This document shows positions 96 through 10,691 of a stretch of 10,691 bases of DNA, in pieces; position 1 is the stretch's first letter, and each line of letters begins with the position of its first letter. The position numbers and the translations under genes are program-made. Source of the stretch: an uncultured Pseudomonadota bacterium. GTDB taxonomy: Bacteria; SAR324; NAC60-12. The notes beneath the pieces were generated by a model. The model ran no database searches. It was not told where the DNA came from and saw nothing but the letters and a program-made list of their open reading frames with translations. The DNA lies in contig CAJWCD010000123.1 of the NCBI GenBank assembly GCA_913020725.1, forward strand, positions 1 through 10,691. Reading direction: 5' to 3'.

Positions 96-333
96 CCGTT
101 TACGGTTGACTCAACACCCAAAGCGCTCCAGATGCATGCGGATCTTGCGACTGCCAGAGAATGGGTGCGCGGTGTAGATCTCATCAATCCAGCGCATCAA
201 TTCCAACTCATCTGCATCCATCCCGTCTAGGGGTTGCCGGTAGTAACTCGACCTCGACAGTTCCACTAACTCACATTGGCGGGCGATGCCTCAGCTGCGG
301 GTGTTCCGGTTCGATAAGCGCTCGCTTCCGCAT
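96..333 (-). pseudogene. IS3-family transposase OrfB N-terminal fragment, disrupted
   Basis: The -1 frame reads MRKRALIEPEHPQL. Removing one extra G at 289-290 restores SIARQCELVELSRSSYYRQP...ELMRWIDEIYTAHPFSGSRKIRMHLERFGC*VNRKR, the classic OrfB N-terminus. In-frame TGA at 111-113. Confidence 0.88.
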
Positions 334-623
334 CACATCACCCCCAGTTTCGCTGAGGGTTTTTTTAGCCAGTCCAGCTCTACCCGCAGCTTTCCCACTT
401 GCTGGTAGAGTCGATCCCGCTCTGCCTCATGGGCTGCCTTCTGCTTCGCCTGCCCACTGCCAAACACCTCGGCAGCAGAGTCAAGCAACTGCTTTTTCCA
501 TTGATTGACCTGCGTACTATGGACACCAAATTCAGACGCCAGCTCTGCAACCGTTTTCTCTCCCTTCAGGGCCGCTATTGCTACCTTGGCCTTGAAACCT
601 TTTGAATATCTTTTTCTCTTCAT
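333..623 (-). CDS. IS3-family transposase OrfA (HTH DNA-binding protein)
   Basis: MKRKRYSKGFKAKVAIAALKGEKTVAELASEFGVHSTQVNQWKKQLL...RLYQQVGKLRVELDWLKK is a typical IS3 OrfA with HTH, coiled coil and a terminal WLKK. ATG at 623 is preferred over GTG at 635. Confidence 0.92.
   Translation of the reverse strand: MKRKRYSKGFKAKVAIAALKGEKTVAELASEFGVHSTQVNQWKKQLLDSAAEVFGSGQAKQKAAHEAERDRLYQQVGKLRVELDWLKKPSAKLGVM
341..366 (-). promoter_or_regulatory. Putative programmed -1 ribosomal frameshift signal of the IS3 element
   Basis: Minus strand CTA AAA AAA (A7, 366-360) at the end of orfA, directly followed by hairpin CCCTCAG-CGAAA-CTGGGGG (359-341, one G-U pair). OrfB is in the -1 frame. Confidence 0.7.
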
Positions 624-673
624 ATTGAACCCCACGGATTCAACTCCTAAGAGTTTTGAAGGTGTCAGTACAA

Positions 674-1243
674 TCAGGCCTTACTGTGAACCTCTTTCCA
701 AGTCGGACCTCCGGTGTCTTCAACCCAATAACTCTTTGCCCAGCCAACCCCTTGCCATGAGCGGAACTTTTGGGGTCTTAAGCGGAACAACCAGCGAGGT
801 TGGTTGAGAGTCGGAACCAAGTATTTCGGGCCGTCCGGACCCAAATACCGGACAGCCATTCTTTCCCCAATTTCAACCCACTTGCCTTTGATCACGTTCT
901 CTTCAACCAGTTCAGCCACTCCTTCGCAGAGTACCTTTTCCATCGTTTGATCATCGTCAATGACCCAACTGCATCGTGGGTCGTTCTTAAGGTATTCAGC
1001 CCACTTGGAGCGAGATCGCGGAATAACCCAAAAACAACCTTGTTGGTAATTCTCACTGCTACCATTGACTTGATCCCCTTGTTGTTCCCAATGGTGCCAG
1101 CACGGAATGACAAAAGGATCACCATTTGGTTTCAGGCACGCCAGACGCAGGGTTTTTCCTTTTGCCAGAAAATCCTCAATGTCTGCTGCACTCATGGAGC
1201 CCACAGACTTGCTGTGTTCCTCCTGTGCATATTTTTCTCCCAT
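674..1243 (-). CDS. Pyridoxamine 5'-phosphate oxidase-like split beta-barrel protein (flavin/deazaflavin oxidoreductase superfamily; possibly F420-dependent)
   Basis: MSAADIEDFL...RLACLKPNGDPFVIPCW...RSKWAEYLKNDPRCSWVID...VLCEGVAELV...RYLG...LFRLRP..FRSW follows the PNPOx-like/FDOR-B pattern. Strong RBS AAGGAGG (1254-1248). The cofactor (F420 vs FMN) cannot be decided from the sequence. Confidence 0.85.
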   Translation of the reverse strand: MGEKYAQEEHSKSVGSMSAADIEDFLAKGKTLRLACLKPNGDPFVIPCWHHWEQQGDQVNGSSENYQQGCFWVIPRSRSKWAEYLKNDPRCSWVIDDDQTMEKVLCEGVAELVEENVIKGKWVEIGERMAVRYLGPDGPKYLVPTLNQPRWLFRLRPQKFRSWQGVGWAKSYWVEDTGGPTWKEVHSKA

Positions 1244-1364
1244 AGTTCCTCCTTCAAATGATTGAAAATTGGTCTGGTTTTATCTGGACACAGCCCGAAT
1301 GGGTCAACCGTACCCGATCCCGAACAAAGGTCAAGGCCATCCCTGTGGAAGATCATTTTTGCTC

Positions 1365-1394
1365 TTGACAGAGCATCAACATGCGTGTTACAAG
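1365..1394 (+). promoter_or_regulatory. Candidate sigma70 promoter for the binding-protein gene
   Basis: Perfect TTGACA at 1365-1370, 18-bp spacer, extended -10-like TGtTACAAG (1386-1394). The -35 lies inside the inverted repeat TGCTCT-N4-AGAGCA (1360-1375). Confidence 0.5.
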
Positions 1395-1398
1395 TTCG

Positions 1399-1430
1399 AC
1401 TGGTGTACATCAGGCAGGCAGTCTGATGTA
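1399..1430. promoter_or_regulatory. Candidate repressor operator(s), GntR-like palindrome
   Basis: CTGGTGTACATCAG (1400-1413) is palindromic with one mismatch. TACATCAG (1406-1413) and CTGATGTA (1423-1430) form a perfect 8-bp inverted repeat. It lies just downstream of the candidate -10. Confidence 0.5.
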
Positions 1431-1468
1431 TTGATCCAGTTTTTGTTCACCCTCAAAAGGAGAATTGC

Positions 1469-2605
1469 ATGAATCCCAAGCACTTGTTCCAAAAAATCGT
1501 GTCCTTCCCTGTTACACTGTTGCTGGCCCTAGGATTGGCGGCACCCTTGGAAGCTGGCGAGCAATTCACTCAGGAGGAAATCGCCTCCTCGCCGTATCTG
1601 CAAAGTGTCCTACGCCGCATGGACGAGCGCTACGACACCAGCAAATTCCGCAAAAAAGGTCCCTACCGGATTGCGCTGGCCGCTCAAGGAACCAGCAATT
1701 CGTGGTCGGCGTTGTTTGATGAGCATGCCGTCTCGTACGCCAAGGAGTTGGGCAAGGAGGTGATTGAGGAGTTGCTGTATGCCGATGCTCAGGCTTCGGC
1801 GGACAATCAGATACCACAGGTGGAGGATTTACTTGCGCAAGAACCGGATGCTTTGATTCTGGTGCCAATGGGCGCAGCGGCTCTCTCGGCTCCGGTTGAG
1901 CGGGCGATGGCCCAAGGGGTGCCGGTCGTCTTGTGTGCCAGTGCCGTGGAGACCGACAATTTCGTCACTGAAGTCGGAACCAACCTCTATGCCAGTGGAG
2001 CCGGACTTGCGAAGTACCTGATCGAAAAACTGGGAGGCAGGGGGAATGTCCTGATGATGACGGGCATTCCCGGAGTCAGTACCTCGGACGTCATGGAGGC
2101 GGGAGCCAAAGCCGCCTTCAAGAAGTATCCGGGCATCAAGCTGCTCGATGTGCAGCCGGGGAACTGGTCCACGGCAGAGGCCAAGCGCATCATGGAGACG
2201 TGGTTGGTGCAGCATGACCGTGTTGACGGCATCTGGTCCGGGGGGGCACAGATGTCGCAGGGGATCGTCAGCGCCTACCTTGACAAGGGTGCGAAAATCC
2301 CGCCTATCGGGGGAGGGGAGTTCGCGACCGGCTTTCTGCGTCTCGCCATCGCAAATGATCTGGAGTACGGAGCGTGGCAGTATCCCAATGCCATGGTGGT
2401 GCTGTGCATGGACGCCGCCGTCAACATCTTGCGGGGACGGTTGGTTCCGCGCTTCATTGACTTTGTGGATCACATTCCCGGCACGGGCACGTTCACTGAT
2501 GTCGAGGGGCGAAAATACTACAACGCGAAGTGGAGTGATGACGTCTTTGGCCCCATTCTCTTCCCCAAGGAGCGACTGGCCAAGCTTGGGTTTCTGAGCA
2601 AGTAG
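1469..2605 (+). CDS. Sugar-type ABC transporter substrate-binding protein (periplasmic binding protein type 1, RbsB-like)
   Basis: N-terminal signal peptide (hydrophobic stretch ending ...APLEA). Motifs DTSKFRKKGPYRI, NSW, DAQASADNQIPQVEDLLAQEPDALILVP, VERAMAQGVPVV, GIPG, GNWS. RBS AAGGAG at 1457-1462. Confidence 0.93.
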   Translation: MNPKHLFQKIVSFPVTLLLALGLAAPLEAGEQFTQEEIASSPYLQSVLRRMDERYDTSKFRKKGPYRIALAAQGTSNSWSALFDEHAVSYAKELGKEVIEELLYADAQASADNQIPQVEDLLAQEPDALILVPMGAAALSAPVERAMAQGVPVVLCASAVETDNFVTEVGTNLYASGAGLAKYLIEKLGGRGNVLMMTGIPGVSTSDVMEAGAKAAFKKYPGIKLLDVQPGNWSTAEAKRIMETWLVQHDRVDGIWSGGAQMSQGIVSAYLDKGAKIPPIGGGEFATGFLRLAIANDLEYGAWQYPNAMVVLCMDAAVNILRGRLVPRFIDFVDHIPGTGTFTDVEGRKYYNAKWSDDVFGPILFPKERLAKLGFLSK

Positions 2606-2745
2606 TGGCCCTTGTCGACCCCATATGGCCGATTATCCGGGGTGCAGCCCCGGATTCTCATCAAGGGCAGGAGGATACTTGAGTTCGTTCCAACGGCGAT
2701 GGGTTCTTCGGCCGATGGGGAGCAGACTGAAATCAGGAGGTTAGG

Positions 2746-3492
2746 ATGAAGCTGACCAGTGACATTCATGTCGTGGGAGGAGGCTACTACGGCTTTGGCC
2801 TGTCCGGCCGTTTGGATTGCCATGTGTATGTGATCAACAGCGGGACGGAACTGGCCATCGTGGATCCCGGTTGTGGCATAGACAAGGATTTCGAGACGAT
2901 TCTGGAAAACATCCGCGACGACGGACTCGATCCTAGGAAAATCCGAAAAATCTTCGTGACCCACTACCATTGCGACCACATCGGCGCAGCGGCGGAGGCC
3001 CGAGGCCGACTGGATGCCGAGCTGTATGCGGCAAAGCTGGTCGCTCCGCTCATCCGGGAGGGAAACGAGGAAGCCGCCTCACTGGATGTGGGGAAAGCGG
3101 CGGGGTTCTACCCCAAGAGTTTCTCCTTGGCTCCGTGCGAGGTGGATGTGGAGTTGTCCGAGGGGGATGTGGTCAAGATTGGCAACATGGCCATGGAAAC
3201 CTACGAGACTCCGGGGCATTGCGAGGGGCATCTGAGCTTAATTTTGTCCGGGGGGGACCGGAAGTATTTATTCGGCGGGGACATGGTTTTCTGGGGAGGC
3301 CGCATCCTCTTGCAGAACATCCATGACTGCAAGATTGACGCTTACGCAGAAAGCATTTTCAAGATTGAGAAAACAGAATTTGACGCACTGCTTCCAGGTC
3401 ATCTCCAAATTTCGTTGACGGATGGAAAAGCGCATGTTGAACGGGCTGCAAATGCGTTCCGGCAATTGGGCGTTCCCCCCAACCTGCTTTGA
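2746..3492 (+). CDS. Metallo-beta-lactamase-fold hydrolase (glyoxalase II/lactonase-like; substrate unknown)
   Basis: IVDPG, THYHCDH (HxHxDH, 2959-2979), TPGH, GGD and LLPGH metal-binding motifs in canonical order. No signal peptide. RBS AGGAGG at 2735-2740. Confidence 0.93.
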   Translation: MKLTSDIHVVGGGYYGFGLSGRLDCHVYVINSGTELAIVDPGCGIDKDFETILENIRDDGLDPRKIRKIFVTHYHCDHIGAAAEARGRLDAELYAAKLVAPLIREGNEEAASLDVGKAAGFYPKSFSLAPCEVDVELSEGDVVKIGNMAMETYETPGHCEGHLSLILSGGDRKYLFGGDMVFWGGRILLQNIHDCKIDAYAESIFKIEKTEFDALLPGHLQISLTDGKAHVERAANAFRQLGVPPNLL

Positions 3493-3508
3493 GGAATGAG
3501 AAAGCAGA

Positions 3509-4483
3509 CTATTGATCATTCTGTTTGTAAAGCGCAACTGCTGCAACGATGATGATACCCTGAATCAATCCTTGAATGAACTGACTGACTCCCAGAGCAA
3601 CGAGAAGGTTGGCCGTTACGCTCAACAGCAACACACCACCTAGCACACCGATCACACTCCCACGGCCCCCAAAGAGACTCGTCCCTCCGATCACGACTGC
3701 CGTGATCGCCTTGAGTTCCAAACCGTCTCCAATGACGGGATCGCCCACGCCCATGCGCATGAGCCACAGCAGCCCGGTGGCTGCCGCAAGAGTACTGCAC
3801 AGTCCGTAAACCCCGTAGCGTACCAGCTTCACGGATATCCCCGACAGTTGCGCGACTTGAAGGTTGCCTCCCGTCGCATAGATGTGTTTCCCGAAAACGG
3901 TGTAGCGCAACAGCAAGATCACAAGAATGATCAAGAAGACAAAGAAATAAACAATGATGGGGATTCCGCCAATTTTTTCGTCGTAGAACAACAAAAAACC
4001 CCGACTTGACCGGCCAATCGGCTTGGTCGTGATCGTTAGGGCAATGCCCCGTAAAATAATAAAAGAGGACAGGGTGACAACAAACGGGGGAATGTTGAGC
4101 TCATTGATCAAGAAGGCGTGGGTCAATCCCACCAACATGCCCAAGCCCAGCGTGAGCATGACGGCAAACCACACGTTTGCCGGATCCCCGTCCATCAGAA
4201 TTGCGGAAACCAAGACACAGAGTTTCACCAGTGAGCCGATGGAGAGATCAATGCCCGCTGTCAGGATGACGAGCATCTCGCCTAGGGCGGCGGTTCCCAG
4301 ATAGGCCGCTTGACGGGCCACATTGGTGAGGTTCCGAAGGGTGAAGAAACGTTCGGAGGAAAGGGTGCCAATGGTTAACAAAAGGATGATGAGTCCATAG
4401 ACGACAAGAATGTTAGCGTGTTTTTGAAAGAAGGTCCGTTGACCTGCTTGCAACTTTGTCGATACGGAGGTGGTCATGTTCAT
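3509..4483 (-). CDS. Sugar ABC transporter permease (RbsC/BPD_transp_2 family)
   Basis: Multiple TM segments; GIDLSIGS, IPPFVVTL, FGKHIYATGGNLQVAQLSGI, GLELKAITAVVIGGTSLFGGRGS. ATG at 4483 overlaps the ATPase stop (TGATG), suggesting translational coupling. Confidence 0.95.
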   Translation of the reverse strand: MNMTTSVSTKLQAGQRTFFQKHANILVVYGLIILLLTIGTLSSERFFTLRNLTNVARQAAYLGTAALGEMLVILTAGIDLSIGSLVKLCVLVSAILMDGDPANVWFAVMLTLGLGMLVGLTHAFLINELNIPPFVVTLSSFIILRGIALTITTKPIGRSSRGFLLFYDEKIGGIPIIVYFFVFLIILVILLLRYTVFGKHIYATGGNLQVAQLSGISVKLVRYGVYGLCSTLAAATGLLWLMRMGVGDPVIGDGLELKAITAVVIGGTSLFGGRGSVIGVLGGVLLLSVTANLLVALGVSQFIQGLIQGIIIVAAVALYKQNDQ

Positions 4484-6036
4484 CAAGCTCTAGGCTGGCT
4501 GGCCAGAGAAGCCGAAGCCTTTTTCCCAGTGGTCGCTAATTCGATGATCCCTTCCTCGCTGGCCTCGGAACGCGAGAGTTCTCCTACAATCCTGCCATCC
4601 CGCATCACCAAGATGCGGTCACTCATGCCGAGGATTTCTGTCAACTCGGAAGAGATCATGAGGATGGCCATGCCGAGATCGTTCAATTGGCGCATGAGTT
4701 GGTAGATCTCAAACTTGGCTCCAACGTCCACTCCCCGCGTGGGTTCGTCCATGATGATGATCTCCGGCTTGGTCTCCAGCCATTTCGCCAGCACCACCTT
4801 TTGCTGATTCCCGCCACTGAGGTACTGCACCTCCTGATCTGCTGAAGCCATCATGATCGAATGCTTCCGACGGGCTTCGCTCACGATTTCATCTTCAAGT
4901 CCCCGCCGCAACACTCCCCAGCGCGTCACTCGCTTCAGGATAGGGAGCGTGATGTTGTTGCGAATCGGAAGCTCTGTGAAGAGTCCCTGCTGCTTTCGGT
5001 CTTCAGGCACGAGAGAAAGCCCTTGCCGGATTGCTTGGGCCGGGGTTTTCAAGGACACCGAGTCTCCCTTGATGGTGATGCGGCCTGTCGTCAGCCGATC
5101 CGCACCAAACAGCGCCCGGGCCAGTTCCGTCCGCCCGGAGCCGACCATGCCGGCCACTCCGAGGATTTCACCGGCATGGAGGGTAAGGCTGGCACCATCC
5201 AAAATGGTGTCGGTGGAGATGTCTTGAGCCTGCAGGACCAGTTCTCCCCGCTCGCGGTTGTTGGCAGGAAAGACTTCCTCAAGGGAGCGGCCCACCATCA
5301 TCTGCACCAGTTCGGAGCGGGGGAGGTCGTGGACCTGACGGGTGCCGACCACTTCTCCGTCTTTCAGCACGGTCACTTCATCGGCAATCTGGAAAACCTC
5401 ATCAAGGCGGTGTGAGATGTAGATGATGGTGACCCCTTGCTCGATCAGGGACTCGATGATGCGGAAGAGCTGCTCCAGCTCGTGTCCGGCAAGGATCGCC
5501 GAGGGTTCATCCATGACAATGAGGTCCGCGTTCTTGGACAAGGCTTTGGCAATCTCGACCATTTGCTTGTAGGCCACAGTCAACTCACCGACCTCCAAGT
5601 CGAGTTTCAACTCGATCCCGAGTTGATTCAAGAGGTCTGCCGCCTCTGTCCGGAGACGCTTGCTGTTCACTAATCCCAAGCGGTACCGGGGTTCCCGGCC
5701 CAGAAAAATATTTTCCGCAACGGTCATTTGGGGAACCAGGGCGAGTTCTTGGTATATGATACTGATCCCGCTGTTGATTGCTTCTCTCGTGGAGAAGTGT
5801 TGATGGGATTCCCCTTTGAAAAGGATTTCTCCACTGTCCGCCAACAAGGCTCCGGCAAGAATCTTCATGAGGGTGGACTTGCCGGCCCCGTTCTCGCCGA
5901 CGAGCGCATGCACGGTTCCGGGTTTGCACTGAAAGGACACGTCCCGGAGTGCCTGAACACCACTAAACGATTTGGTGATGTTGCGCATTTCAAGAATGAA
6001 GGAGTTCGACGATTCACCCATCAGTTTATAGTCCAA
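4483..6036 (-). CDS. Sugar ABC transporter ATP-binding protein with two fused ABC domains (RbsA/MglA-like)
   Basis: Walker A GENGAGKS, IYQEL, MDEPS, YISHRL; second domain PEDRK, LSGGNQQKV, DEPTRGVDVGAK, ISSEL. The start may be ATG 6021 rather than TTG 6036. Confidence 0.97.
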   Translation of the reverse strand: MDYKLMGESSNSFILEMRNITKSFSGVQALRDVSFQCKPGTVHALVGENGAGKSTLMKILAGALLADSGEILFKGESHQHFSTREAINSGISIIYQELALVPQMTVAENIFLGREPRYRLGLVNSKRLRTEAADLLNQLGIELKLDLEVGELTVAYKQMVEIAKALSKNADLIVMDEPSAILAGHELEQLFRIIESLIEQGVTIIYISHRLDEVFQIADEVTVLKDGEVVGTRQVHDLPRSELVQMMVGRSLEEVFPANNRERGELVLQAQDISTDTILDGASLTLHAGEILGVAGMVGSGRTELARALFGADRLTTGRITIKGDSVSLKTPAQAIRQGLSLVPEDRKQQGLFTELPIRNNITLPILKRVTRWGVLRRGLEDEIVSEARRKHSIMMASADQEVQYLSGGNQQKVVLAKWLETKPEIIIMDEPTRGVDVGAKFEIYQLMRQLNDLGMAILMISSELTEILGMSDRILVMRDGRIVGELSRSEASEEGIIELATTGKKASASLASQPRA

Positions 6037-6098
6037 TTGCGTAGCTCGTGCAGTGCAGCAACAAGGTTTCTTTCAATGTTTAATTGATTGCATTGGGT

Positions 6099-7076
6099 TC
6101 ACTGATCTTTCCGGGCAAGGCTGTACAACGAGATTGCCGCCAGGATGACGAGTCCCTTGATGATGAGTTGTGTCTGAATTTCCAATCCGAGCAAGACGGC
6201 CATGGTGCTAAGGGTCTGGATGATCAGAACGCCAGCGATCGTGCCGAGCAGTCCTCCGCGTCCCCCGACAAAGGCGGTGCCTCCAACCACCGCTGCCGCA
6301 ATTGAATCCAGGTCCAAGCCTGTCGCAATGAATCGATCCACATAGCCGACGTAACCTGTCAGAACAACCCCGGAGACCACCGCAAGACAACTTCCAAACA
6401 CATACACCGACATCTTGATGGCATCAACCGAGATGCCTGTCAGTCTGGCAGCCTCCGGATTGCTGCCCACCGCGTAAACCTTTCGTCCGTAAGCCGTCCC
6501 TCGCAGGACAAAGAGAAAGATCACATTCAATCCCAACCACAACACGAGCGGGATGGAGAGGAACCCCCAAGACTTGTTGACGATCCCCATGGCCTCCGGA
6601 ACGAACCCACTGGGAACCCCGCGTGTAAACGCCTGCTGCGCGCCTTGCACCAGCACCAGCATTCCCAGCGTTGCCACAATGGGAGGAACTTTGCGCTTGG
6701 TCACAAGCAAACCGTTGCCTAACCCAATTATCGCCCCCAAGCCCAAGGCGATCAGGATGGATAGTGGGATCATTTCGTCACGACCGTTGCTGACCTCGGC
6801 TACGACCATGGAGGTCATCACGATGACTCCGCCAACGGACAGATCCAATCCTGCCACCAGCAGAATCATGGTTTGGCCAATAGCAATGATTCCAAGTTGG
6901 GCAGACTGCCGGAACACGATAGCTAGCGTTTCCGTTTCAAAGAACTTGGGGGTGATCAATGCGGCAACAGCAAATAGGAGGATCAGTGCGAGAAAAACGC
7001 CGTAAGCCACGAAAAACCTGCGAACTCGCCAATTGATGAGGGGAGACGTAGTTGTTGGAAGGGTTCTGGTAATCAC
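6099..7076 (-). CDS. Sugar ABC transporter permease (RbsC/BPD_transp_2 family)
   Basis: GLDLSVG, VPPIVATLGM, YGRKVYAVGSNPEAARLTGI, LDSIAAAVVGGTAFVGGRG. GTG start preceded by a GAGGG RBS-like motif. Confidence 0.95.
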   Translation of the reverse strand: MITRTLPTTTSPLINWRVRRFFVAYGVFLALILLFAVAALITPKFFETETLAIVFRQSAQLGIIAIGQTMILLVAGLDLSVGGVIVMTSMVVAEVSNGRDEMIPLSILIALGLGAIIGLGNGLLVTKRKVPPIVATLGMLVLVQGAQQAFTRGVPSGFVPEAMGIVNKSWGFLSIPLVLWLGLNVIFLFVLRGTAYGRKVYAVGSNPEAARLTGISVDAIKMSVYVFGSCLAVVSGVVLTGYVGYVDRFIATGLDLDSIAAAVVGGTAFVGGRGGLLGTIAGVLIIQTLSTMAVLLGLEIQTQLIIKGLVILAAISLYSLARKDQ

Positions 7077-7230
7077 GAATTAACCCTCATAAGGTGTTGA
7101 ACTCTGAGAACGAGATAGGATTTTTAGTCTTACGCAAAACATCTCAAACTGGAAGAGGTTCCGGCGAATTTTTTGAAAAAACTCAAGGGGGATAAGCCTG
7201 AATGTATGATCAAGGAACTTAAGAGAGAAA

Positions 7231-7259
7231 ATTTTTTATCAAGCCACTAAATATGTCAA
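7231..7259 (-). promoter_or_regulatory. Candidate sigma70 promoter for the ABC permease-ATPase-permease operon
   Basis: Minus-strand TTGACA (7259-7254), 17-bp spacer, weak -10 AAAAAT (7236-7231), about 155 bp upstream of the permease start. Confidence 0.4.
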
Positions 7260-7292
7260 GATTTAAGACTCAGGCTAAGCGTTAAGATGGGT

Positions 7293-7375
7293 TAATATGC
7301 TGATATTATTGTATTTTTTAAATTAAGTTTAGAGGTGCTGAAGGAGTAAAAACTGATAATATACTGATATTATTG
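7293..7375. repeat. 19-bp direct repeat (two copies) with internal palindrome; IHF-consensus/operator-like
   Basis: TAATATGCTGATATTATTG (7293-7311) and TAATATACTGATATTATTG (7357-7375), 18/19 identical, 64 bp apart. Each contains TAATAT-N4-ATATTA and matches YAANNNNYTGATW. Confidence 0.75.
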
Positions 7376-7652
7376 GGAATGTAATTTAAGACATCAAATC
7401 ACGAAAAACTTTAAAAAACAAGTTTTAGCTTTTATTTTCAGTTATATAGATGGTTTTTACACCCTCTGAACACTTATGACTCAGGAGTCCGTTGATTTGT
7501 TTTTGCTCTGCAAAATGGAGCGGAAAGAAGGAGAGTTCAACAGTCCTGTCAAGATTTTAGGAATGGCAATCCATCATGCAGTTTGCTAAGATTTCTTTAT
7601 CATGTAGGGCAAGCATCCGCTTCCCTGCTGGAACCATTTTCAAAGGTGTGGG

Positions 7653-10055
7653 ATGAGCGGTCTCTCTTGGAATTCTTTTTGGAAACGCTTGCCAAACGCG
7701 GAAGAAGCGCTGGCCCTTGCCGAAATCACGGACACCCGGAAGCTGACTCAACTCGCCGGACGCCTCCGGGATCAGGGGCACGGCAACCTCGTCTCGCACT
7801 CCCGGAAAATCTTCATCCCGCTCACGAAGCTTTGCCGCGATTTCTGCCACTACTGCACCTTCGCCCAGCCTCCGAGCAAGCAGCGTCGCGGCTTCATGAC
7901 TCCGGACGAGGTACTGGCCCTCGTCAGGCAGGGCGAAGCCGCTGGCTGCAAGGAGGCGCTGTTCACCTTGGGCGACAAGCCGGAACTGCGCTACGGGGCG
8001 GCTCGGGAAGAACTGGCGGACTTGGGACACGAAACCACGCTTTCGTATCTCGCCGAAATTGCGGGACGGGTCGTTTCCGAAACGAAACTCCTGCCCCACC
8101 TCAATGCCGGGGTGATGTCCGCCGAGGATTTGCGGAAGCTACGGCAGGTCTCGGTTTCGCAGGGCTTGATGCTGGAAAGCGTTTCCCCGCGCCTGAGTCA
8201 AAAAGGCGGGCCGCATTACGGTTCGCCGGACAAGCATCCGGAGCTTCGGCTGGAAACGATTCGGCTCGCGGGAGTCGAGAACATTCCGTTCACCTCCGGA
8301 ATTCTGATCGGCATTGGAGAAACCCGCCGCGAGCGCATCGAGTCGCTGCTGGCCTTGCGGGAATTGCACGAACGGCACGGACACCTTCAGGAAATCATCA
8401 TCCAGAACTTCCGGGCCAAACCGGACACCAAAATGGCGAAAGCTCCGGAACCGAGCCTTGCAGAACTAGTCTGGACGATTGCGGTGGCGCGGATCATCTT
8501 TGGGCCGAAAATGAACCTTCAGGCTCCTCCCAACCTCAGTTCCGGGGAACTCTCGGCATTGGTCGAGGCAGGAATCAACGACTGGGGTGGCATCTCTCCG
8601 GTGACACCCGATCACGTCAATCCGGAAGCCCCGTGGCCGGAGTTGGTGGAATTGTCGCAGGCCACCGCCGAATGCGGCAAATTGCTGACGGAACGGCTGG
8701 CGATTTATCCGGGCTATGCCGTCGCGGGCGAGGCATGGCTGGACGATGCCGTACGTCCGCAAGTCCGGCGTTTGACTGACGGGGAAGGCTTCGCCCGTGT
8801 CGATTCGTGGTCTCCCGGACAAGGAATGTCGCCCCCGAAAATGGCGGAACCTCCAAGTTCTCCCCTTTGGCAAAGGGGGGCTAGGGGGGATTTTGAGGAA
8901 CTGCTGGCGAAACCCACAAACACTGCGGAGTGGTCAGAAGCGGAGATCGAACGGTTGTTGCGCTCACGCGGAGGCGAGTTTGAGGCCGTTTGTGTGGCTG
9001 CCGATACGCTCCGGAAGCAGGTGAGCGGGGAAGTCGTCACCTACGCGGTCAACCGCAACATCAACTACACGAACATCTGCTATTTCCGTTGCGGCTTCTG
9101 TGCATTTTCCAAAGGAAAGATGTCGGAAAACCTGCGGGGCAAGCCCTACAATCTTGGATTGGACGAGATCGTGCGACGCACCGAAGAGGCGTGGACGCGG
9201 GGAGCGACGGAGGTTTGTCTGCAAGGCGGGATTCATCCAAGCTACACGGGCCAAACCTACCTCGACATCTGCACCGCGCTCAAAGCCGCTGTTCCGGAAA
9301 TGCACCTCCACGCCTTCTCGCCGCTGGAAATCTGGCAAGGGGCGCAGACGCTCGACCTGACCGTTGCTGAATTTTTGCGTCGCTTGCACGAGGCAGGACT
9401 CGGCACCCTACCCGGAACCGCCGCTGAGGTGCTGGACGACGAGGTGCGAGCGGTGATCTGTCCGGACAAGCTTTCGACGGCGCAGTGGCTTTCCGTGATG
9501 CGCGATGCCCACGAGGTTGGTTTCCGCACCACCGCCACCCTGATGTACGGTCATGTCGAAACGCCCCGGCAAGTGGCGCGTCACTTTCTGCGTTTGCGCG
9601 AACTCCAGCGGCAGACCGGGGGCTTCACCGAATTCGTGCCCCTGCCCTTTGTCCACATGGAAGCTCCACTTTATTTGCAAGGCAAAGCCCGTCCGGGGCC
9701 GACTTTCCGGGAGGCGGTGCTGGTTCATGCGGTGGCCCGCTTGGTGTTGCATCCGCACTTCTCAAACATCCAGACCTCGTGGGTGAAGATGGGTCCGGAA
9801 GGTGTGAAAGCCTGCCTCAACGCAGGAGTCAACGACTTGGGGGGCACGCTGATGAACGAGAGCATCACCCGCGCTGCGGGCACGGTTCACGGGCAGGAGT
9901 TGCGTCCGGAAGACATGGAGTCTTTGATTGCCAGTGTTGGGCGCATCCCTCGTCAGCGCACCACCCTTTACGAAACGCCGAACCCACAACAAACCGCTAA
10001 ATCCTACGGCCACACCGAATCCGTCTCGCTGAGAGGATTACCGTTGGCTGTGTAA
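7653..10055 (+). CDS. fbiC: Bifunctional FO synthase (7,8-didemethyl-8-hydroxy-5-deazariboflavin synthase, CofG-CofH fusion)
   Basis: 800 aa with two radical-SAM CxxxCxxC motifs. CofG-like half: SRKIFIPLTKLCRDFCHYC (Cys motif 7833-7856), GCKEALFTLGDKPE, GSPDK, IIQNFRAKP, QAPPNL, GINDWGGISPVTPDHVNPEAPWP. CofH-like half: NRNINYTNICYFRCGFC (9078-9101), EVCLQGG, HAFSP, LPGTAAE, EFVPLPF, IQTSWVKMG, NDLGGTLMNESITRAAG, QRTTLY. Confidence 0.97.
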   Translation: MSGLSWNSFWKRLPNAEEALALAEITDTRKLTQLAGRLRDQGHGNLVSHSRKIFIPLTKLCRDFCHYCTFAQPPSKQRRGFMTPDEVLALVRQGEAAGCKEALFTLGDKPELRYGAAREELADLGHETTLSYLAEIAGRVVSETKLLPHLNAGVMSAEDLRKLRQVSVSQGLMLESVSPRLSQKGGPHYGSPDKHPELRLETIRLAGVENIPFTSGILIGIGETRRERIESLLALRELHERHGHLQEIIIQNFRAKPDTKMAKAPEPSLAELVWTIAVARIIFGPKMNLQAPPNLSSGELSALVEAGINDWGGISPVTPDHVNPEAPWPELVELSQATAECGKLLTERLAIYPGYAVAGEAWLDDAVRPQVRRLTDGEGFARVDSWSPGQGMSPPKMAEPPSSPLWQRGARGDFEELLAKPTNTAEWSEAEIERLLRSRGGEFEAVCVAADTLRKQVSGEVVTYAVNRNINYTNICYFRCGFCAFSKGKMSENLRGKPYNLGLDEIVRRTEEAWTRGATEVCLQGGIHPSYTGQTYLDICTALKAAVPEMHLHAFSPLEIWQGAQTLDLTVAEFLRRLHEAGLGTLPGTAAEVLDDEVRAVICPDKLSTAQWLSVMRDAHEVGFRTTATLMYGHVETPRQVARHFLRLRELQRQTGGFTEFVPLPFVHMEAPLYLQGKARPGPTFREAVLVHAVARLVLHPHFSNIQTSWVKMGPEGVKACLNAGVNDLGGTLMNESITRAAGTVHGQELRPEDMESLIASVGRIPRQRTTLYETPNPQQTAKSYGHTESVSLRGLPLAV

Positions 10056-10142: not shown

Positions 10143-10691
10143 TTAGCTGCTGTCGCCAGAAATATTTGGGTTGGAGGCTTCGAATTCCAACAGCCGTGCC
10201 TGCGCAGCCACCAAGTCACCCTTGGCGCAGAGCAACTGCTTGACCACGCCAGCGTCCGGGGCAGAGATCGTGTGTTCCATCTTCATCGCCTCCAGCGTTA
10301 GCAATGGCTGCCCGCGTCGCACCGTTTCCCCGGCGGCCACGAGAACTTCAACGATGGTGCCCGGCATCGGGGCGCTGAGACTCGGTTGCTGCGAATCTTC
10401 TGTGGACGACCACAGCAGTCGGGGTTTCGGGGTGAATCGCTCACGAACTTCGGGGCTTTCCGGATCGGTCGGAATCACCCAAAACGCGGCCTCCGGCGAG
10501 TCGGCTTCCTGCAAAATCCGGAAGGAGAACCGTAAGTTTTGTCCTGTGAGCAAGCAGCCCTGCTGCGTTTCCTGAAACTCCAATTCGATGTGTTCGTCAT
10601 TCTGAATCACCGTGAACCACAGTGGGAGGTGGGGGCGGGTTTGAAACCCACCCCTACCGGAAACCTGCCGTGCGCTGGTCTTCACGGCAAG
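10143..10691 (-). CDS. Biotin-dependent acyl-CoA carboxylase alpha subunit, C-terminal part with biotinyl-carrier domain (probably 5'-partial)
   Basis: LSAPMPGTIVEVLV..GETVRRGQPLLTLEAMKMEHTISAPDAGVV: biotinylation motif EAMKM at 10292-10278. The frame is open to the window edge (CTT GCC GTG...), so the gene probably starts beyond 10691. The APMPG/MEHTI pattern resembles methylcrotonyl/geranyl/propionyl-CoA carboxylase alpha chains. Confidence 0.88.
   Translation of the reverse strand, partial: LAVKTSARQVSGRGGFQTRPHLPLWFTVIQNDEHIELEFQETQQGCLLTGQNLRFSFRILQEADSPEAAFWVIPTDPESPEVRERFTPKPRLLWSSTEDSQQPSLSAPMPGTIVEVLVAAGETVRRGQPLLTLEAMKMEHTISAPDAGVVKQLLCAKGDLVAAQARLLEFEASNPNISGDSS
10629..10657 (-). 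repeat. GTAG-family REP-like palindromic element inside the carboxylase CDS
   Basis: Minus strand GTAGGGGTGGGTTTCAAACCCGCCCCCAC: 5' GTAG followed by a 29-bp near-perfect palindrome (2 non-Watson-Crick positions) centred on 10643. Confidence 0.75.

Follow-up and report, generated by a model that had tools for sequence, protein, structure and literature searches.

The known FDOR-B enzymes TpnL and GupA reduce cyclic imines, and the review in which they appear states, in the portions of its text available to us, that in most organisms the genes for FO and for F420 are found together and that the physiological role of the deazaflavin cofactor F420 outside the Actinobacteria has not been studied experimentally; these portions mention no importer of the kind described below (PMC8498797). 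F420 synthesis genes have already been noted in SAR324 bacteria, as the available parts of two reports indicate (PMC8364033, PMC7426153). Here we analyze a stretch of 10,691 nucleotides (hereafter the window; it is the entire contig CAJWCD010000123.1, or C123, of the uncultured SAR324 assembly GCA_913020725.1, genome G000), in which the gene for the FO synthase FbiC is accompanied by an ABC importer of the CUT2 type, a metallo-beta-lactamase (MBL)-fold hydrolase and a split-barrel protein resembling the FDOR-B enzymes. This block is a real, conserved and previously undescribed module made of known kinds of part, two of which have altered ligand sites. The closest relatives of the window sequence are SAR324 records, and scans for open reading frames (ORFs) and family profiles recovered all seven genes that a preliminary description of this DNA had placed in a single 9-kb block:

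674 to 1243, minus strand: split-barrel protein (PNPOx/FDOR-B-like) of 189 amino acids, PF01243; nearest structure Rv2991; W81 replaces the phosphate-binding Lys
1244 to 1468, no strand: divergent spacer between the split-barrel and binding-protein genes
1469 to 2605, plus strand: CUT2-type periplasmic binding protein of 378 amino acids with an atypical pocket, PF13407
2746 to 3492, plus strand: MBL-fold metallohydrolase of 248 amino acids, PF00753; HYHCDH at residues 73–78, two PGH motifs and GGD
3509 to 4486, minus strand: CUT2 permease B, from family scans
4483 to 6036, minus strand: CUT2 double ABC ATPase, from family scans
6099 to 7076, minus strand: CUT2 permease A, from family scans
7077 to 7652, no strand: AT-rich divergent spacer between permease A and fbiC, not kept in relatives; it contains two 19-mers (at 7293 and 7357) that recur elsewhere in the genome
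7653 to 10055, plus strand: FbiC, a fused CofG-CofH FO synthase of 800 amino acids, above curated cut-offs

FbiC scores as an FO synthase in three models (NF006687, 1134 against a cut-off of 1018 bits; TIGR03550, 499 against 213; TIGR03551, 566 against 374), and the importer has the CUT2 architecture, with a type I binding protein, a double ATPase and two BPD_transp_2 permeases. The genes for the binding protein and the hydrolase run towards the permease genes and do not form one operon with them.

The block is embedded in the SAR324 F420 gene cluster, and its adjacency to fbiC goes beyond chance. In the genome assembly, fno, cofE, cofD and cofC lie at the end of a second contig (C74), and a metagenome contig (L121) that matches C123 at 99.4% and C74 at 99.6% carries the window sequence together with cofC, mtap/apt-like genes, cofD, cofE and fno. 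Since this contig connects the two, the module sits between cofC and fbiC, inside the F420 cluster. Other SAR324 genera keep this layout, in the order fno, aminotransferase, cofE, cofD, cofC, module (split barrel, importer, MBL) and fbiC (L116, L032/L112, L031, L034/L048 and L047), although the preliminary description had allowed that the proximity of fbiC might be coincidental. In L116 the aminotransferase gene overlaps cofE, and the F420 synthesis genes score over their cut-offs. Eighty metagenome loci were found with the split barrel (neighbors were counted within 8 kb, and many loci are near-copies); an importer, MBL or F420 gene accompanies it in 36, of which 29 have fbiC, cof or fno genes, while the remaining 44 hold mostly more distant relatives amid other gene sets. 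Even in rearranged loci (L131, L144, L134 and L141) the module still touches cofC or fbiC. Across 79 genomes of the SAR324 phylum, the split barrel occurs in 10 and cofD in 28; eight of the 10 split-barrel genomes carry cofD, and the two that miss it are 74% and 82% complete. F420 synthesis is therefore broader than the module. As a separate observation, two genes between cofD and cofC in G000 (C74:16474–17897) resemble, by eye, those for an adenine phosphoribosyltransferase and a methylthioadenosine phosphorylase.

The same genes recur together in a second phylum. Of 77 loci recovered in a genome scan, 68 belong to Chloroflexota. All 45 Chloroflexota loci with full flanks have the split barrel, 42 have the MBL and 43 an aminotransferase (class I in 40, class V in 3); the SAR324 module aminotransferase is 46% identical to its Chloroflexota counterpart. 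Importer and split barrel form the constant core, with little else in L099, L113 and the SAR324 genus g3. In a quick, midpoint-rooted tree the six SAR324 binding proteins included form one clade nested among those of Chloroflexota. In a FastTree of 40 of the 125 split-barrel sequences, by comparison, the SAR324 proteins fall with P0013–P0015 (the P0013 cluster carries the name of marine Gammaproteobacteria) and with proteins from soil, and those of Chloroflexota stand apart (33–40% identity). A Chloroflexota origin is thus likely for the importer, and an origin in some other lineage for the split barrel; the assembly of one gene set from two apparent sources argues for a functional link between split barrel and importer. 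The expectation that the genes co-occur, in hosts with F420 genes, was in this way borne out across phyla.

The split-barrel protein is predicted to adopt a PNPOx-like split beta-barrel (pLDDT 88), and fold searches place it beside Rv2074, Rv2991 and MSMEG_3380 (Z 15.1–15.4; root-mean-square deviation 2.1–2.8; 122–137 aligned residues). In MSMEG_3380, W35 is the deazaflavin-pocket Trp and the groove residues have been listed (PMC3034190, in part), and Lys53 contacts the F420 phosphate (PMC5623714, in part). W49 of our family is invariant in all 125 members and aligns with this W35, the one pocket residue compared. The phosphate Lys and cationic groove that mark FDOR-B were not found, and because the Lys is replaced we do not class the protein as FDOR-B; nonetheless it may work like one, and the invariant R76, R132 and R150 might take over the phosphate contact. 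Its host encodes fbiC, cofC, cofD, cofE and fno, and hence both synthesis and recycling of the cofactor. Three genomes of one SAR324 group (G004, G015 and G047) were searched for F420 clients in PF01243, PF00296 and PF04432: PF01243 is represented there only by the split barrel and a 215-residue PdxH-like protein, luciferase-like monooxygenases (LLMs) number one, one and none, and no FrhB domain was found. Of the two LLMs one was classified, that of G015, which scores best as FMN-type. Among the families searched, the split barrel is thus the only F420 client found in these three genomes; G000 has four LLMs. A PF04075 search gave no match in five genomes, nor in the controls, and was not used.

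The binding protein keeps the sugar-binding fold, and fold searches matched generic sugar-binding proteins only. Its pocket, mapped through an alignment to 2ioy, is different in kind: the polar sugar residues of ribose-binding protein, which we take to be Asp-Arg, Arg, Asn, Asp and Gln, were not found, and the pocket has A157, S158, M209, G259, A260, E284 and Y305, with N77, W79 and W233 kept. At the positions matching the polar residues, A157, S158, M209, G259, E284 and Y305 recur in 32–33 of the 33 orthologues compared. Given this replacement, a plain monosaccharide is an unlikely ligand, and a sugar or polyol, the kind of cargo that the preliminary description had in view, is not supported, since every one of the 33 orthologues has lost the sugar-binding residues. 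Homologues on plasmids (29–34% identity) yielded no clue to the ligand, and atlas searches revealed no new family.

The MBL homologues carry the ligands of a dinuclear site (THxHxDH and the two PGH motifs, each in 119 of 120), and the window protein, which by inspection has no signal-like N-terminus, matches Lactamase_B at 83.9 bits and Lactamase_B_2 at 31.2. It does not reach the cut-off for a class B3 beta-lactamase (NF033105, 80.7 against 240). Partner genes vary between hosts: L214 adds an M20 hydrolase, a 2-keto-3-deoxygluconate (KDG) kinase and a 2-keto-3-deoxy-6-phosphogluconate (KDPG) aldolase; sponge-type loci add an HpcH-like aldolase, a BhcC-like pyridoxal phosphate (PLP) enzyme and what we presume to be a dipeptidase-like protein, for which NCBIfam gave no label; and soil loci add IclR, Rid, creatininase, M20 and MlrC-like genes, with transporters of the Opp type and not CUT2 (IclR and the Opp permeases assigned by eye). 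Distant MBL relatives (28–34%) occur in plasmid clusters of IclR, Rid, KDG kinase, KDPG aldolase, M20 and aminotransferase genes. The deacylases, KDG kinase, aldolases and IclR of these wider clusters point to catabolism of a nitrogen-containing compound.

The reading that we tentatively prefer, at slightly less than an even chance, is that the module imports a nitrogen-containing solute other than a plain sugar and breaks it down in a deazaflavin-dependent manner. From the gene identities, linkage and residue patterns we infer four steps. The CUT2 system would import an N-heterocycle or an amino-sugar conjugate; the split barrel would move a hydride between a C=N or C=C bond and F420, which the neighboring Fno would recycle; the MBL would open a lactam or lactone; and a class I or class V aminotransferase would take off the amine. 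In some hosts, deacylases, KDG kinase and aldolase could finish the carbon chain. The earlier proposal of uptake coupled to deazaflavin-linked processing is supported in part, by the co-occurrence of the module genes across phyla, by hosts with F420 genes and by the embedding of the module in a whole F420 pathway with Fno in SAR324; a sugar or polyol ligand and a fixed tie to fbiC are not supported. In Chloroflexota no F420 gene lies within 10 kb of the module at any of 68 loci, and the hosts lack FO synthase.

A number of observations weigh against this reading. The groove residues R24, Q30, N32, H47, R51, Q52, R55 and R80 of MSMEG_3380 map to K38, F44, I46, P75, S79, K80, E83 and E107; the Lys53 position is Trp in 112, Phe in 12 and Leu in one of the 125 family members (W81 in the window protein); 2hti, a structure of FMN type, reaches the same Z as the F420 structures; and the window protein reaches 44.5 in TIGR03618, whose cut-off is 79.05 (a Chloroflexota relative reaches 70.9). 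All SAR324 cases may descend from a single insertion, as the one clade of binding proteins would allow; in two genomes of the same genus, G001 and G002, cofC adjoins fbiC and the module is absent; L146 and L124 retain the module and the aminotransferase, the cof genes being lost or cut at that spot; and 20 of the 28 cofD-bearing genomes of the phylum have no split barrel. The proposed MBL and aminotransferase steps are each dispensable, since loci of genus g3 have no MBL and G000 has no orthologue of the module aminotransferase (best match 27–32%). In the Chloroflexota hosts, finally, cofD is as frequent as in the background of their order (196 of 201 genomes).

Much of this would suit a passenger independent of F420, one that imports and degrades a nitrogen-containing solute, its split barrel working with a different cofactor or with none, and that entered the SAR324 F420 cluster a single time and has been inherited there since. 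The loss of the phosphate Lys, the single clade, the absence of cof genes near the Chloroflexota module, the same-genus genomes without it, and the loci that kept it while losing cof genes all fit such a history, as do the KDG kinase and aldolase clusters that hold MBL relatives without an annotated split barrel. We nevertheless consider it rather unlikely. The module aminotransferase sits within the fno-cofE-cofD-cofC run, and the module adjoins F420 genes in three arrangements; where hosts of the split-barrel family are named, they belong to Actinomycetota, Acidobacteriota, Nitrososphaerota and marine Gammaproteobacteria, and 72,556 plasmids gave no match; and one soil paralogue, at 79.9, exceeds the TIGR03618 cut-off.

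The hosts in Chloroflexota bring up another possibility, which the preliminary description had also raised, namely that the module salvages deazaflavin: the importer would take up FO or a breakdown product of F420, the split barrel would bind phosphate-free FO, and CofC, CofD and CofE would rebuild F420. Among 43 module hosts tested, cofD was found in 42 and cofG in none, and a CofH-family gene was found in none of five. Four of these hosts carry 9–30 LLMs, and the putative F420-0 transporter exceeded its cut-off in none of five genomes tested. The loss of the phosphate Lys would fit a phosphate-free ligand, the binding-protein pocket is aromatic and not sugar-like, and the importer and split barrel are precisely the constant core. 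L144 keeps cofE-cofD-cofC and the module; here only FbiC residues 703–787 are left (8847–9101), as a 3' remnant beside the inverted module. The distribution argues the other way. In the order of the Chloroflexota genome G048, sampled with 201 genomes that include the seed genome and some known module hosts, cofD occurs in 196, cofG in one and an orthologous binding protein in 29, so that 172 genomes have no such importer although nearly all have cofD and no cofG, and the importer cannot be the sole source of FO for the order. In the class background of 251 genomes, cofD occurs in 91 and an orthologous binding protein in one, the seed genome. Moreover, SAR324 hosts make their own FO; aminotransferases, aldolases, kinase and IclR have no role in salvage; G512 retains MBL, aminotransferase, split barrel and M20 while the importer is missing; and the preference of the MBL for Lactamase_B suggests that it is less phosphodiesterase-like. 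Salvage is hence unlikely, its strength being the hosts without FO synthase and its weakness the distribution of the importer. A more specific version, in which the CUT2 importer was re-tuned for FO, the Lys-to-Trp change holds phosphate-free FO, and the system supplies the Chloroflexota that have no FO synthase and tops up SAR324, is about as doubtful; were it true, FO would be traded between marine microbes like a vitamin. An order that has cofD yet almost never cofG implies that FO is either taken up from outside or made by a route not yet known. The co-occurrence of the module with cofD was set aside as evidence, being uninformative within the order.

Uptake and catabolism of vitamin B6 by a pyridoxamine transaminase, a lactonase and a PNPOx-like protein is very improbable: in its favor, pyridoxamine-pyruvate transaminase is the best-scoring model for the class V aminotransferases, 26 loci contain an ORF cluster with pdxS, and the split barrel has the PNPOx fold, but the scores fall far under the cut-offs (transaminase 213–219 against 600 bits, B6 ATPase 346 against 670), most loci carry a class I aminotransferase, pyridoxolactonase is absent among the best 60 of 78 PDB matches of the MBL, and the F420 cluster would be left unexplained.

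Some further features of these Chloroflexota can be recorded here. Most cofD regions read from the order (among L200–L213) also contain cofC, cofE and fno, and the single cofG genome, G420, gave no cofD match. An Anaerolineae run of fno, cofE, nitroreductase, cofD and cofC (L200–L202, L204–L209 and L212) often has as neighbors a Mer-like LLM, an SsnA-like amidohydrolase, a PLP enzyme and genes that by eye resemble xanthine dehydrogenase, which hints at a role for F420 in purine breakdown.

Parts of the locus appear in RNA. Twenty runs contain part of the window, and in four that were examined, stretches of the genes for the split barrel, binding protein, MBL and permeases and of fbiC are represented by contigs. 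These are assembled contigs, which cannot rank genes or levels; one bridges the binding protein and the MBL, though transcript extent cannot be read from it and DNA carry-over is possible. A bin without coverage (7141–7497) was not taken as evidence.

The divergent geometry of fbiC and the importer, read in the preliminary description as a shared control region, is confirmed (576 bp, 35% GC); the shared regulation is not. As the sequence of this spacer recurs in none of the six other spacers, the control region is shared in geometry only, and a common fbiC/permease operator was ruled out. A 19-mer of the spacer has five genome sites at up to two mismatches, two of them within the spacer itself. 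A palindrome of the type TTGATTTCA-N3-TGAAATCAA, a possible operator, is kept in the permease-fbiC spacers of L116, L031 and L047 and is absent from the window. In the spacer at 1244–1468, TTGAC (1365–1369) is kept in seven of seven SAR324-type spacers. The palindrome TGGTGTACATCA at 1401 has no second copy in the genome, and none was seen in the six relatives.

The window further contains the following features, which lie outside the module:

1 to 642, no strand: insertion sequence (IS), between the split-barrel gene and cofC
333 to 635, minus strand: IS3-type orfA, part of this insertion
10143 to 10685, minus strand: C-terminal biotin-carrier region of a carboxylase, unrelated to the module; contig C70 has a 95% similar piece

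The IS interrupts the assembly of the F420 cluster in G000. A repeat at 1–94 is also found on contigs C10, C119 and C129; the insertion is missing from the near-identical strain contig L121 and from the contigs of three of four RNA runs, and loose ends at 643 occur in three of four. Importer and MBL genes lie at the 29th–72nd percentile for third-position GC content among 2,265 long ORFs of G000, and a recent foreign island was rejected; the split-barrel gene, at the 4th percentile, is the only low one of the module. Beyond fbiC, L033, L035, L116 and L144, from several SAR324 genera, share a second conserved block, with a CUT1-type importer, a Gfo/Idh/MocA dehydrogenase, a short-chain dehydrogenase/reductase, a Zn-dehydrogenase and an amidohydrolase, close homologues of which (59–67%) adjoin the split barrel in marine loci L156, L158, L160, L163 and L166.

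The literature listings, which exclude subscription papers and supplements, showed nothing that describes the module, or the uptake of FO in these groups, in keeping with the earlier remark that no characterized pathway with this gene set is known; a term search of the available text of PMC8764529 returned nothing relevant. The locus offers a small, testable F420 candidate in SAR324, an abundant ocean lineage, with parts seen in seawater RNA contigs, and either of the two altered ligand sites, in the binding protein or the split barrel, would define a new specificity.

Compared with described systems, the importer resembles CUT2 importers (RbsABC, AraFGH and YtfQRT) in its binding protein, double ATPase, two permeases and fold, but the binding protein has at most about 25% identity to any solved one, and no equivalog cut-off is reached. 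It differs in binding-protein class from the putative F420-0 ABC transporter (TIGR03868/TIGR03873), which, going by the model names, is an ABC importer thus far only proposed to take up deazaflavins; the ATPase reaches 187 where the cut-off is 372, and TIGR03868 is not listed for the binding protein. With the FDOR-B proteins MSMEG_3380, Rv1155, Rv2074, Rv2991, TpnL and GupA the split barrel shares its fold, the pocket Trp and hosts with F420 genes; it differs in the Trp or Phe at the phosphate Lys, in other invariant Arg residues (76, 132 and 150), in an extra C-terminal WQGVGW segment, in its tie to an importer and in falling below the TIGR03618 cut-off. The Arthrobacter and Planococcus plasmid clusters, themselves uncharacterized, have an MBL 28–32% identical over its full length and in common M20, class V aminotransferase, aldolase, kinase and transporter genes, but they carry Gfo/Idh/MocA dehydrogenases and no annotated split barrel or F420 genes. 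Finally, the SAR324 cluster has the same genes as standard fbiC/cofC/cofD/cofE/fno clusters, but it is interrupted by the importer, hydrolase and split barrel and, in other SAR324 genera, by an aminotransferase between fno and cofE.

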